Sequence record: OR887633
DNA length: 64,000 nt
Reading direction: 5' to 3' (one strand)
Origin: Shigella phage vb_GEC_SH_GT
The first letter of the stretch is position 1, and every line of letters starts with the position of its first letter. This document shows, one piece after another, positions 2,265 through 42,430 of this stretch. The translations under genes and the position numbers were made by a program. Under the pieces are notes generated by a model. It was not told where the DNA came from. It did not search any database and saw only the letters and a program-made list of their open reading frames with translations.

Positions 2265-3170
2265 TTAAAGGTCATTCAAAAGGTCATCCAGGTCCGTGTC
2301 ATCAGCACTAGATGAACTGCCAGAGCTTGAGCTCATAAAATCATCTTCAGTTTTTGTTTTGAAGTCATCAACATTAAATGCATCCAAATCATCAGCAACT
2401 TTATCAGCTTTCTTAGCGGCAGTCGCTGCGGCACCGCCCATCACAGCAGTTCCCATAACTTGACCGAATTTAGTATTCAGTTCTTCAAATGATTTGAATT
2501 TATCTTTAGAAGTCATTTCAGAAAGGTCAACCATTTGTTCGAACAGTTCTTTCTGGAAAGATTCATCGTCAATGTTTGGAATCGCAGATTGATTCAGGAA
2601 TTTAGATTCATCGTAGTTACTAAATCCAGAAACCTGTTTAACTTTCAGTACAAAGTTAGCACCTTCCCACGGACAAGTTACATCAACCGGAGTTTCACCC
2701 ATTTCAACATCAACTGCAATCATTGCGTTGATTTTATCCCAGATTTTCTTACCGAAACGGTATTTAAATACTTTACCTTCATTTTCTGGAGCAGCTGGGT
2801 CTTTTACTACAAGAATGTTAGCCCAGTAAGAAGTTTTACGTTTAACAAGACTGTACTCTTTATTGTCAGTGTTGTACAAATCATTTTTACTGATGTACTG
2901 ACATACTGGGCAAGAATCGTAATCACCGTGGGTAGATGAACATGTTTCAATATACCATTTACCATTTTTCTTGAAACCGTGATTTACAAGAATTGCGAAT
3001 GGTGCTTGTTCATCATTTTTAGACGGAAGAAAACGAATTACTGCTTGACCGTTACCCGCATTATCGAGTTTCAGTTTCCACTCGCCTTTATCTTCAGAAG
3101 AAAAACCTTTATTGCCATTCAGTTTAGCCATTTGTGCAGCAAGTTCAGCAGTAGATTTACGTTTAAACAT
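2265..3170 (-). CDS. 32: single-stranded DNA-binding protein gp32
   Basis: 301 aa; zinc-binding cluster [10 protein letters not shown]; acidic Ser/Asp-rich C-terminal tail; synteny. Confidence 0.93.
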
Positions 3171-3219
3171 TTTATTTCCTTTTTAATTTAATTAACAGTT
3201 GGTGCTATGACACTTTACC
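3171..3219 (-). promoter_or_regulatory. A/U-rich gene 32 leader (candidate autogenous translational operator)
   Basis: unstructured A/U-rich leader TTAAATTAAAAAGGAAATAAAATG on minus strand; function inferred from T4 gp32 autoregulation. Confidence 0.35.
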
Positions 3220-3852
3220 TCATAGCTGGCATAATTTGCAATACTCTGGGTCTTCGAGAGGTATCCAACCTGAGTTGAAATACTTTACCATCGATTTAGC
3301 AGTTGTATCAGTTATATTTATATTACCTTTAACTCTTCGCCATCCAGGAGTTTTACCGTACAGATTAGAGGATAATAATAACACATAATTCTCGTAAGCA
3401 ATATGAGATAATTTCCAAGACTCTATATTAGCTCGTGATGTTTTCCAAGGTCTAAAATCGTCACGGTTCATATAATTAGCCAATCTCATATGCTCTCTAA
3501 CTTCCGGGTCTTTGGCTGGATGAGTTTCACCACTCACACCAAATCCACCACCAGCATATACCAGATTAAAATAGTCTGGATTATCTCTGGCATTTACTTC
3601 AAGTTGGTATTTTCGTTCTGCTTCAATAACATCCAAGTCATCATCAATTTGAATTATTTTAACGCTCGGTTTTTGAAGCATTAGCGCATTCAAAAATCTT
3701 TTTTGTTTACATGAGCTCCAGTATTCCTTTCCGGAAGAGTCATATATTATTCCGTTCTCAAATGAGCAATTTAATTTACTACCGATATAGTAGTATGGCG
3801 GAGTCTTATTTTTGACACGGTCTTCAAATGTAAACCAATATACTATATTCAT
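3220..3852 (-). mobile_element. segG: GIY-YIG family homing endonuclease (SegG-like)
   Basis: N-terminal VYW...(13 aa)...YYIGSK resembling GIY-(10-11)-YIG; 210 aa; sits between 32 and 59. Confidence 0.5.
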
Positions 3853-38851: not shown

Positions 38852-39311
38852 TTATTTTACCTAAAACAACAGTAGGAGCATCGTCAAATTTATGAATTTT
38901 GAGTAAATTTGGATTTAAATTATTCCATAAAGAGGTAATAAAATATGATAGCGCATTTTCTTCCGTAATTATAAATTTATTTCCCTTATCTATTTTCCAG
39001 TCATATATTGAATCATATGAATATAATGGCAGCGGTTTATTGTTATAATATGCTTCAGCAACATCAATATAGTTAGATTTAGTAAATGCTTGAATTGACA
39101 TAAATGGAGAATTTCGTACAGTTTCAATAATTCCGATCTTTTTAAGTTTTATTTCAACATCTTCTGGAACTGGCATTGAAATAAAATCTTCTACTAGATA
39201 CATGCTATTATCATATCTTTTATCAATCATTACTGCTACTGTAATTGGAACGTCTTTAGCAAACGACATACTATTACTGCTAATATACATTTCAAACAAA
39301 ATCGCTTCCAT
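38826..39311 (-). CDS. hypothetical protein
   Basis: ATG at 39311 with GAGGA SD (track start is TTG). Confidence 0.45.
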
Positions 39312-39933: not shown

Positions 39934-39958
39934 AAAAAAGGACTCCCGAAGGAGTCCT
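39934..39958 (-). terminator. rho-independent terminator after soc
   Basis: GGACUCC-UUCG-GGAGUCC hairpin plus UUUUUU on minus strand. Confidence 0.65.
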
Positions 39959-39965
39959 TGAATTA

Positions 39966-40202
39966 TTAACCACCTATTTGTGTAGGCGTAAACATTGCAG
40001 CATTCTTAGTTTTCCAGTCAGCTGCATCAGAAACTACAGTAGAATATGCCGCCTTTTCAGAAGGAAAGGTCTGATAATGAGAATCTGCAATACGGTGTTC
40101 ATTTGAATATACATCAAATGCTACAGAAACTTCCATACCTTTAACTTCTTTGCCTTCACCCGCTGGATGAGTAAAGGTCTTGATGTTAACGAAACCACCC
40201 AT
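39966..40202 (-). CDS. soc: small outer capsid protein Soc (divergent variant)
   Basis: 78 aa; conserved core VNIKTF...VSVAF...HYQTFPSEKAAYSTV; late promoter 32 nt upstream. Confidence 0.75.
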   Translation of the reverse strand: MGGFVNIKTFTHPAGEGKEVKGMEVSVAFDVYSNEHRIADSHYQTFPSEKAAYSTVVSDAADWKTKNAAMFTPTQIGG

Positions 40203-40233
40203 AATAAACTCCTTTATTGTTTAATTACAAGTG

Positions 40234-40241
40234 TATTTATA
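40234..40241 (-). promoter_or_regulatory. late promoter TATAAATA for soc
   Basis: exact TATAAATA on minus strand inside the 3' end of the HNH ORF. Confidence 0.6.
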
Positions 40242-41073
40242 AACCATTTTCAAACCTCTTTATCATATTTATATAGTTTTCATCGGGATAACCTAGACTA
40301 ACTGCTAACTTTCTAAAATTGACATATTTAGGTTTGTTGTTATTAATCCATAATTCTCTAAGCTCTTTTTCATAATTCCATTTAAGTTGATTTCTGCGTG
40401 CAGTTTTGCTTAAAGTTTTTCCTTTAGCTTTTAAAGCTTTTTCGGATGATTGTTTTAATTTTTGAATATTTAAAACTTCTTCTATAGATAAATTATTTTC
40501 CTTTGAATACCTTATGCAAAAATCTTTTACTACGGCTATTAGGCAATTTTTGTGAGTACCTAAAATTTCTGGATTATTTTCTTCAACTAAAATTCCCCAA
40601 TATCTTCTGTAGCGAGGCATATCCCTTGAAATCCAGTCATTATACCAAAAATCAAAGTTGGAATACATGAAAGATTTTCTTTTGCGAAGAGTATCTTGGT
40701 TTATCCATTGCTCACGTTTATCAGCCCATAACTTAATAGTAAAGTCTTTCTCTAAGTCAGAAAGCTTCTTAAATTGCGAGCTATTTACTGAGGTCATTCT
40801 CTGGAATGCATTTAGCAATCCAAATCTTCCAGTTGAACATAAGAGATAGTGAACATATATGTGTTGATATATTGGGAGATATACTCTATTCCAAGGATAT
40901 ATTTTAAAATCACTATACTCAGGAAATGCGCATTTAGGAAGTATATGATGGGCTTCTGTTTTAGATTTAATGTGAGTGTTTAACTTATACTTATCTATAA
41001 TTTTTAAGTACTCATCTAAAAGTTCCCATTGCGGGAACTTTTCTTTAAGAGCAGATTTGAAATTAATATCCAT
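40237..41073 (-). mobile_element. putative HNH-family homing endonuclease
   Basis: 278 aa from ATG at 41073 (track start is TTG); TEAHHILPKC motif; basic C-terminal half. Confidence 0.45.
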
Positions 41074-41581
41074 TATCTTGACGTTCAAAATTATGTTTGT
41101 TCTTCAGGTAATAAAGTTTAAAGATTTCTTCAGCTGTAAGACCAAGACCCTGGAACATATTCAGAACGAAATGAAGAATATCAATCATTTCAAATTTAAT
41201 TTCTAACTGGTCTTGCGGAGACAAATCAGTAATTAGAGTTTCACGGCGTTCACCATGTTGAGCTTTCCAAGGCTTCCATACAGCAGATGCATCTTTTTCG
41301 CCATTGCTCATACCGCCAAGAGAAGTTAGAAGTTCGCGGAATTCATCATCAATATAATCTTTCTGATTGCGCAGCCAATCAACAACTTCACCTGCGGTAG
41401 CCAAATCATCAGGATGACGGTTATATTCAGGTTTATCTTTAGCTAAACGAACCTGTAGAGATTTCTGCATATCAAGCATAACCTGCAGCGGGTCTTTTTC
41501 ATCACCAAGAATATCCCAGTATTCATTTTGAGCTTTATCAACACCTTCGATCAAATGAGCGCATTCATTAAAATATGCCAT
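41063..41581 (-). CDS. 56: dCTP pyrophosphatase gp56 (MazG-like)
   Basis: ATG at 41581 (MAYFNEC...); sequence and position. Confidence 0.8.
   Translation of the reverse strand: MAYFNECAHLIEGVDKAQNEYWDILGDEKDPLQVMLDMQKSLQVRLAKDKPEYNRHPDDLATAGEVVDWLRNQKDYIDDEFRELLTSLGGMSNGEKDASAVWKPWKAQHGERRETLITDLSPQDQLEIKFEMIDILHFVLNMFQGLGLTAEEIFKLYYLKNKHNFERQDNGY

Positions 41582-41641: not shown

Positions 41642-42430
<789 letters not shown>

Follow-up and report, generated by a model that had tools for sequence, protein, structure and literature searches.

Between soc and gene 56 of Shigella phage vb_GEC_SH_GT (sequence record OR887633, from which a stretch of 64,000 nucleotides (nt) is here called the window) there lies an open reading frame (ORF) on the minus strand, which an earlier note on this DNA had proposed to encode an HNH-type endonuclease; the present analysis concerns this gene, its junctions with its two neighbours and its relationship to the homing endonucleases of T4. 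The features of the locus are collected in the table below. The first ATG of the ORF lies at 41073 and gives a product of 278 amino acids (aa), MDINFKSAL...RFENGL, which ends at a TAA stop at 40239-40237 and carries the motif TEAHHILPKC, remarked on in the earlier note, at residues 39-48; on the upstream side of gene 56 come dam and then gene 61 (primase). The genome is Tequatrovirus-like, its closest public record being vB_EcoM_ACG-C40 (96.9% identity across 1.8 kb of the locus), and the locus was compared with 14 annotated phage loci; a scan of IMG/VR gave a single locus, from the same phage as vB_EcoM_005, and hence the comparison is based on GenBank phage records. In several phages RefSeq labels the gene “HNH endonuclease” or “homing endonuclease”. 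The soc-56 interval is indeed a documented site for homing endonuclease genes, in that the segF gene of T4 resides there and targets gene 56 (Table 1 of PMC2988022), and the statement in the earlier note that T4 carries the GIY-YIG gene segF in this interval is confirmed both by the T4 record and by that review. The kind of element is therefore well known, with segF of T4 as the textbook case at the same locus.

Table. Positions of the features of the soc-56 locus in the window.
Feature	Position	Strand	Basis
Endonuclease ORF, 283 aa from TTG at 41088	40237..41088	minus	open reading frame list and sequence
Free-standing HNH (MobD-like) gene, very probably for a homing endonuclease; 278 aa and TAA stop	40237..41073	minus	PHROG 655 and 12434, dN/dS, RefSeq labels
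N-terminal HNH nuclease domain, aa 1-125 (catalytic motif encoded at 40849-40950)	40699..41073	minus	invariant residues, AlphaFold2
C-terminal ~55-aa DNA-binding module (predicted), of the T4 MobD kind, aa 219-276	40246..40419	minus	
soc late promoter TATAAATA (predicted); right cassette boundary, holds the endonuclease stop	40234..40241	minus	position and conservation
11-nt overlap ATGGATATTAA; endonuclease ATG within the last codons and stop of gene 56	41063..41073	minus	sequence, locus comparison
Cassette-linked 3' tail of gene 56, encoding ...KHNFERQDNGY and stop	41063..41100	minus	gene 56 alignment
Hairpin AAAAGUUCCC-GCAAU-GGGAACUUUU, candidate weak terminator or attenuator	41018..41042	minus	RNA fold, conservation
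Gene 56 (dCTPase/dUTPase), upstream host gene	41063..41581	minus	PHROG 173 at 1e-46
soc (small outer capsid protein), 78 aa, allele starting MGGF	39966..40202	minus	Pfam Soc, 8.6e-21
Intrinsic terminator 3' of soc	39938..39959	minus	terminator scan: 9-bp stem, then T run

The proposal that this is an HNH-type endonuclease is borne out by several lines of evidence. The protein matches PHROG 655 (“homing endonuclease”) over its full length at 5e-33 and, with its N-terminal part, PHROG 12434 (“HNH endonuclease”) at 5e-10. When it was aligned with 36 database homologues, the only residues invariant in all 37 sequences were H42, H43, I44, P46, N62, H71 and H75, of which H42, H43, N62, H71 and H75 make up the HNH pattern (a His general base, a structural Asn and metal-ligand His); in the window protein itself this can be read as EAHHILPK...WNRVYL...H...H. 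An AlphaFold2 model of aa 1-125, for which the predicted local distance difference test score (pLDDT) is 93.9, has strands at 39-43 and 63-67 followed by a helix at 68-81 that bears H71 and H75, so that the predicted topology is the beta-beta-alpha arrangement expected for HNH. Among 20 homologues, 4 match the Pfam HNH model and others match HNH_4 and HNH_5, while some homologues carry NUMOD3 and one matches the Pfam entry I-HmuI_NUMOD-like. Finding such relatives required a profile search and an exhaustive search of representatives, a word-indexed protein search having given only 3 matches; among 1.8 billion cluster representatives the exhaustive search found 713 relatives at E <= 1e-3, of which just one fell below 1e-30, implying that the protein is a distinct branch of a large family.

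Among T4 proteins the best full-length match is MobD. In BLASTP comparisons MobD showed 25% identity over 259 aa (E = 2e-9), MobB gave E = 6e-4 and MobC only E = 0.029, although by tblastn the HNH domain (aa 17-121) has 42% identity with a gene annotated as mobC in PST and other T4-type phages. The C-terminal module listed in the table is present one to three times in many Mob-like proteins, and a profile of it scores 92.9 bits against the window protein, 67 bits against T4 MobD and 15 bits against residues 163-193 of T4 SegF; tblastn places it at the C-terminus of T4 SegA as well (segA, HM137666.1 23580-23732). Mob proteins have been defined, in the review by Edgell, Gibb and Belfort (PMC2988022), as having an HNH domain at the N-terminus and a separate region for DNA binding at the C-terminus, and the gene is in addition free-standing, located between conserved genes, co-oriented with them and missing from close relatives. 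Judged by its sequence, the protein is thus a MobD-like member of the T4 Mob family in the sense of that review.

The MobD-type module is accordingly common to HNH (Mob) and GIY-YIG (SegA and, weakly, SegF) endonucleases of T-even phages, which points to a shuffling of such modules from one nuclease family to another. The module is also probably what lies behind the remark “similar to T4 SegA” in the RefSeq record of ACG-C40.

At its right-hand end the gene runs into the predicted soc late promoter TATAAATA, which lies 31 nt 5' of the soc ATG, the distance and the conservation both being those of a T4 late promoter. The earlier note had this promoter embedded in the coding 3' end of the ORF, and it does overlap the end of the ORF, but it is not wholly coding: its first 2 nt belong to the final sense codon (TTA), the next 3 make up the TAA stop and the remaining 3 come after the ORF. 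With 8 occurrences in the window against 10.4 expected, the octamer shows no enrichment, so its significance as a promoter rests on position and conservation. It is kept in T4, sb3, P8, Sf21, Killian, DK-13, 005, SmallBear, Mineola and Wolf_ER13 whatever the content upstream of it, the sole exception among the relatives examined being Salmonella phage KM16, with TAATAAATA at the promoter site. Homology with phages that have no endonuclease restarts exactly at this octamer (40241-40234), and quite different reading frames end on it in the same way: the window endonuclease with TTA-TAA-ATA, T4 segF with GTA-TAA-ATA and a 45-aa ORF of the Klebsiella phage Mineola with ATA-TAA-ATA. In SmallBear the cassette stands in place of this 45-aa ORF, and in two genera its limits are the TAA of gene 56 on the left and TATAAATA on the right.

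Two side observations belong with this junction. A second perfect copy of TATAAATA occurs at 40266-40273 on the minus strand, 32 nt upstream of the conserved copy and wholly within the coding part of the endonuclease gene (N-Y-I-N-M); ACG-C40 has this copy too, but fPS-2 reads TATAAACA instead, and it is probably fortuitous. In DK-13 an extra 77-aa ORF with no PHROG match (locus positions 1770-2003) lies between the endonuclease gene and soc, so that the right cassette boundary is not always the late promoter.

On the left, the end of gene 56 that contains the endonuclease start codon reads ...GATAATGGATATTAA; in T4 segF the ATG and the overlap are identical, and both proteins start M-D-I. The last part of gene 56 also goes with the cassette. 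In the gene 56 tail, 13 of ~37 nt differ from the allele of phages lacking an endonuclease (...AENFARQDRGY and stop): carriers of either endonuclease encode ...KNKHNFERQDNGY followed by the stop, whereas sb3, P8, Sf21, Killian and Mineola, which have no endonuclease, encode ...KNAENFARQD(R/A)GY followed by the stop and have no ATG at the site. A 45-nt query made from the carrier tail is 100% identical in T4, while elsewhere gene 56 of T4 and that of the window share only ~70-78% identity, and the query was found in only 73 phage records, nearly all of them with an overlapping endonuclease ORF. Two phages, HMD-9 (locus positions 2000-2110) and Wolf_ER13 (locus positions 897-1080), have the carrier-type tail KNKHNFERQDNGY, stop and ATG with no endonuclease, native small-ORF sequence coming next; these tails look like tracts of partial conversion, and recombination that removed the cassette would fit as well.

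The contents of the slot delimited in this way vary widely. In sb3 there is nothing in it, just 3 nt separating the gene 56 stop from TATAAATA; P8 and Killian have short non-coding DNA, Sf21 and Mineola small ORFs, and T4 has segF; the window, ACG-C40, fPS-2 and other carriers have the HNH gene, and DK-13 has the HNH gene together with the extra ORF. The endonuclease gene was found in ~30 of ~756 related records with the same flanks, across five genera. Carriers include the Tequatrovirus phages ACG-C40, fPS-2 and the Pu-Krd-SF phages, Moonvirus KM16, Gaprivervirus DK-13 and Dhakavirus vB_EcoM_005, and among Klebsiella phages of the Jiaodavirus type the gene is present in 3 of ~137; sb3, P8, Sf21 and Killian lack it despite flanks that are 92-94% identical.

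Comparison of the gene with its flanks gives evidence of recent movement. In the Klebsiella phage SmallBear_ER8 the HNH gene is 97.1% identical to that of the window at the nucleotide level, as against 79% for gene 56, 69% for soc and 66% for primase; for KM16 the corresponding figures are 92% for the HNH gene, 80% for gene 56 and 67% for primase. The same discordance is seen in the synonymous divergence (dS) from the window, which for the HNH gene and for gene 56 (computed without the tail) is respectively 0.12 and 1.32 in SmallBear_ER8, 0.35 and 1.06 in KM16, 0.05 and 0.23 in ACG-C40, 0.05 and 0.34 in fPS-2, and 0.88 and 1.37 in DK-13; it is thus 1.6-11 times lower in the endonuclease gene than in the gene adjacent to it. 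Over the whole ORF, and in all comparisons with these five orthologues, the ratio of nonsynonymous to synonymous divergence (dN/dS) is 0.07-0.10, which implies purifying selection on the protein. Taken together, the low dS relative to gene 56 and the low dN/dS suggest that function has been retained during recent horizontal spread. To judge from these divergences the endonuclease gene is far younger at the locus than its flanks, and the combination of dS discordance with purifying selection is the signature that would be expected of an active homing element.

One copy is different: that of vB_EcoM_005 (locus positions 1997-2835) has a frameshift at the junction of codons 20 and 21, which puts its first 20 aa in another frame, and is either a decaying copy or the product of a sequencing error. 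Further genes in the same record, for instance primase, also look split.

The earlier note had gone on to suggest that the endonuclease was responsible for mosaicism at this locus, citing a divergent Soc. On the gene 56 side this stands, in so far as the last ~37 nt of that gene travel with the cassette, but the Soc variant is not tied to the endonuclease. Soc is certainly divergent relative to T4, with which it shares 49% identity. However, the same allele is present at 93% nt identity in sb3 and Sf21, which have no endonuclease, HMD-9, likewise without one, has the same MGGF-type soc start, and at least three different Soc alleles adjoin the HNH cassette, TATAAATA being the exact point at which homology is lost; divergence of Soc as a product of co-conversion with the endonuclease is therefore rejected. 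More broadly, the block 39950-41500 is 46-78% identical to T4 with at least 94% identity on both sides, and there is patchy divergence and mosaicism elsewhere in the region too, e.g. at 38900-39200.

A further element of the cassette is an RNA hairpin of 10 base pairs (bp) (-19.6 kcal/mol, z = -2.7) located ~30 nt into the ORF, just 3' of the gene 56 stop. It is kept in all carriers, a terminator is annotated there in the fPS-2 record, and a hairpin is found at the corresponding place in T4 segF; intrinsic terminators in the 5' coding regions of segF and mobE have been described (PMC2988022). In ACG-C40 (locus positions 3630-3655) the loop, at 41028-41032 of the window, is replaced by its reverse complement (GCAAT to ATTGC) with the stem unchanged, altering the protein from FPQWEL to FPLREL; this looks like a hairpin-mediated inversion of the loop. 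The possibility that the 3' sequence of the endonuclease gene sequesters the soc ribosome-binding site in long transcripts was also considered and rejected, as the fold was no better than that of shuffled sequence (z = +0.5) and only a local hairpin in the 5' untranslated region was predicted for the soc region of such transcripts.

Putting these results together, the ORF very probably encodes a homing endonuclease of the T4 Mob (HNH) family, closest to MobD in architecture, and the gene is intact, free-standing and a recently mobile cassette. The analysis given here establishes the gene itself with its catalytic motif and domain architecture, where exactly the cassette begins and ends, the purifying selection and the recent cross-genus spread. 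As to how it would work, segF offers a precedent, having been described as a promoter-less cassette expressed by ribosome scanning across its 11-bp overlap with gene 56 (PMC2988022). The present cassette, likewise promoter-less, occupies exactly the stretch that runs from the stop of gene 56 to the late promoter of soc; it would be transcribed by read-through of the early or middle transcript of gene 56, the read-through transcript would be attenuated by the hairpin, and low-level translation would result from re-initiation at an ATG that precedes the stop of gene 56 by 8 nt. During a mixed infection the enzyme would then introduce a nick or a cut into the gene 56/soc region of a co-infecting phage without the gene, and recombinational repair from the carrier genome would copy in both the cassette and the final ~37 nt of gene 56, a tail that would supply the start codon and would probably do away with the target site as well. 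By analogy with SegF, gene 56 is the probable target gene.

There are, it must be said, several points that tell against this interpretation or some part of it. Scans of the 278-aa protein with Pfam and NCBIfam gave no match, and searches of the PDB, both with the single protein and with a profile, gave nothing relevant; a profile search was what the earlier note had nominated as capable of refuting nuclease identity, and while Pfam and NCBIfam were blank the PHROG matches were clear, so that the lesson for annotation is that these two collections miss the family. A literature search found no paper describing the endonuclease or testing it biochemically or genetically. The hairpin at 41018-41042 was not called by a simple terminator scan, there being no free U-tract after the full stem because the U-run belongs to the stem. 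The idea that the gene 56 tail is strictly part of the element is weakened by HMD-9 and Wolf_ER13, the two phages that have the tail and no endonuclease. Finally, free-standing endonucleases usually cut hundreds of bp from their own gene (PMC2988022), which means that the target may not be the gene 56 tail.

Among other explanations, the one that survives best, though it is decidedly unlikely, is that the gene is a relic, i.e. a former homing endonuclease that is decaying or has been domesticated, and that is retained because its deletion would harm the end of gene 56 or the soc promoter. Embedded promoters do favour the retention of endonuclease genes (PMC2988022), the copy in vB_EcoM_005 is frameshifted after codon 20, and the protein goes unrecognised by the Pfam HNH model. 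Against this, the catalytic residues are all intact and the whole ORF is under the purifying selection described above, identity of 97% between genera in a gene whose flanks are only 66-79% identical implies recent movement, and the slot can be empty, as in sb3, so that retention is not forced. A role for the protein in phage biology other than homing, such as that of a DNA-binding regulator, an origin-associated factor or a nuclease directed against host or competitor DNA generally, is very improbable: old T4 records do label gene 69 (now segF) at this place “in origin A of DNA replication”, but the gene is sporadic (~4% of relatives) and dispensable in most of them, it replaces unrelated sequences as a cassette in the manner typical of selfish elements, and its closest characterised relatives are homing endonucleases. 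That the reading frame is open only by chance, in intergenic DNA rich in AT, and is no gene, a view to which the absence of Pfam and NCBIfam matches might lend itself, has practically no likelihood, being already refuted by the homology (the 713 homologues and the PHROG match at 5e-33) and selection data, quite apart from the confident AlphaFold2 domain.

Returning to the interpretation as a mobile Mob-type gene, it is instructive to set it beside the known systems. T4 MobD, from the nrdC.11/mobD.1 locus, has the same arrangement of an N-terminal HNH domain and the C-terminal ~55-aa module, and its gene too is free-standing, co-oriented with its neighbours and overlapping the upstream ORF; it differs in its low sequence identity and its genomic locus, and relative to it the window protein has a longer and poorly modelled middle (aa 133-178) with a weak extra module-like stretch. 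MobD is itself uncharacterised, being given as “ND” in Table 1 of PMC2988022. T4 MobE and MobA are also HNH enzymes encoded by free-standing genes whose start codons overlap the end of the upstream gene, and in the case of MobE there is a terminator in the 5' coding region that may be compared with the hairpin here, but their loci and target genes (nrdB, gene 39) are different; similarity to the window protein lies in the HNH core, with the C-terminal module found in some mobE-annotated genes (IME08, PEi26). In I-HmuI, the nicking enzyme of Bacillus phage SPO1, an HNH core is likewise followed by modular DNA-binding repeats, but that enzyme is intron-encoded, and no match in sequence or structure to the window protein itself could be detected.

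The comparison with T4 SegF (formerly gene 69) is of a different kind. The two genes share the slot, the overlap ATGGATATTAA, the 45 nt upstream (100% identical), a stop codon inside the TATAAATA of soc, a hairpin in the 5' coding region and, weakly, the MobD-type module at the C-terminus of the product. The nuclease domains, however, are unrelated (GIY-YIG, PHROG 314, in SegF as against HNH, PHROG 655), and between the two junctions the DNA has no similarity; BLASTP against SegF gave only a 26-aa C-terminal match (E = 0.07), and Pfam scans of the window protein and its homologues found no match to a GIY-YIG domain. SegF makes double-strand breaks while Mob enzymes nick. In T2 the target cleaved by SegF is gene 56, and the enzyme is the driver of localized marker exclusion (PMC2988022).

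This pattern raises the further idea, which we put forward tentatively and consider unlikely, that the soc/56 slot is a succession site at which segF and the HNH gene have replaced one another in place, both keeping the 45-nt tail, the start codon, the first three codons and the MobD-type module. If it were so, both enzymes would recognise the same region of gene 56 and the common tail allele would protect against both; the slot would be a case of natural nuclease-domain swapping on one homing site, and HMD-9 and Wolf_ER13 would be survivors that have the immunity and not the gene.

In T-even phages, free-standing homing endonucleases are among the main causes of mosaicism and of localized marker exclusion. 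To our knowledge the Mob (HNH) group is poorly characterised, with activity demonstrated only for MobA and MobE. What is new in the present analysis is the exact boundaries of the cassette, a left junction identical to that of an unrelated family, the common MobD-type module and the quantified recent transfer across genera. As a clean Mob-type element that has moved recently and is known from five genera, with exactly defined boundaries and with natural alleles that are empty, occupied by small ORFs, occupied by SegF or reduced to the tail, the cassette is a convenient system in which to study homing by a nicking enzyme, the competition of two families for one slot, and immunity arising from short conversion tracts. 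It also shows that selfish DNA, by overlapping them, constrains both the C-terminus of gene 56 and the promoter of soc.

Some minor observations concern the remainder of gene 56 and the DNA upstream of it. Alignment shows that gene 56 of the window is a mosaic, in which the 5' ~100 nt are T4-like, the body resembles that of sb3 and P8, and the tail is of the carrier type. The first ~100 nt (41480-41581, ...ECAHLIEGVDKAQ) match T4, where the closest relatives of the window (ACG-C40, sb3 and P8) encode ...ECSQLIEGADKAQ, and this small T4-like patch sits at the far end of the divergent block. In fPS-2 (locus positions 3184-3834) and Killian (locus positions 2406-3056) a gene for a 216-aa endonuclease, which belongs to the same PHROG as the window protein (PHROG 655, at 3.7e-59) and has the same C-terminal module, replaces dam, at a position equivalent to 41642-42421 of the window; it follows that gene 56 can have homing endonuclease genes on both sides.

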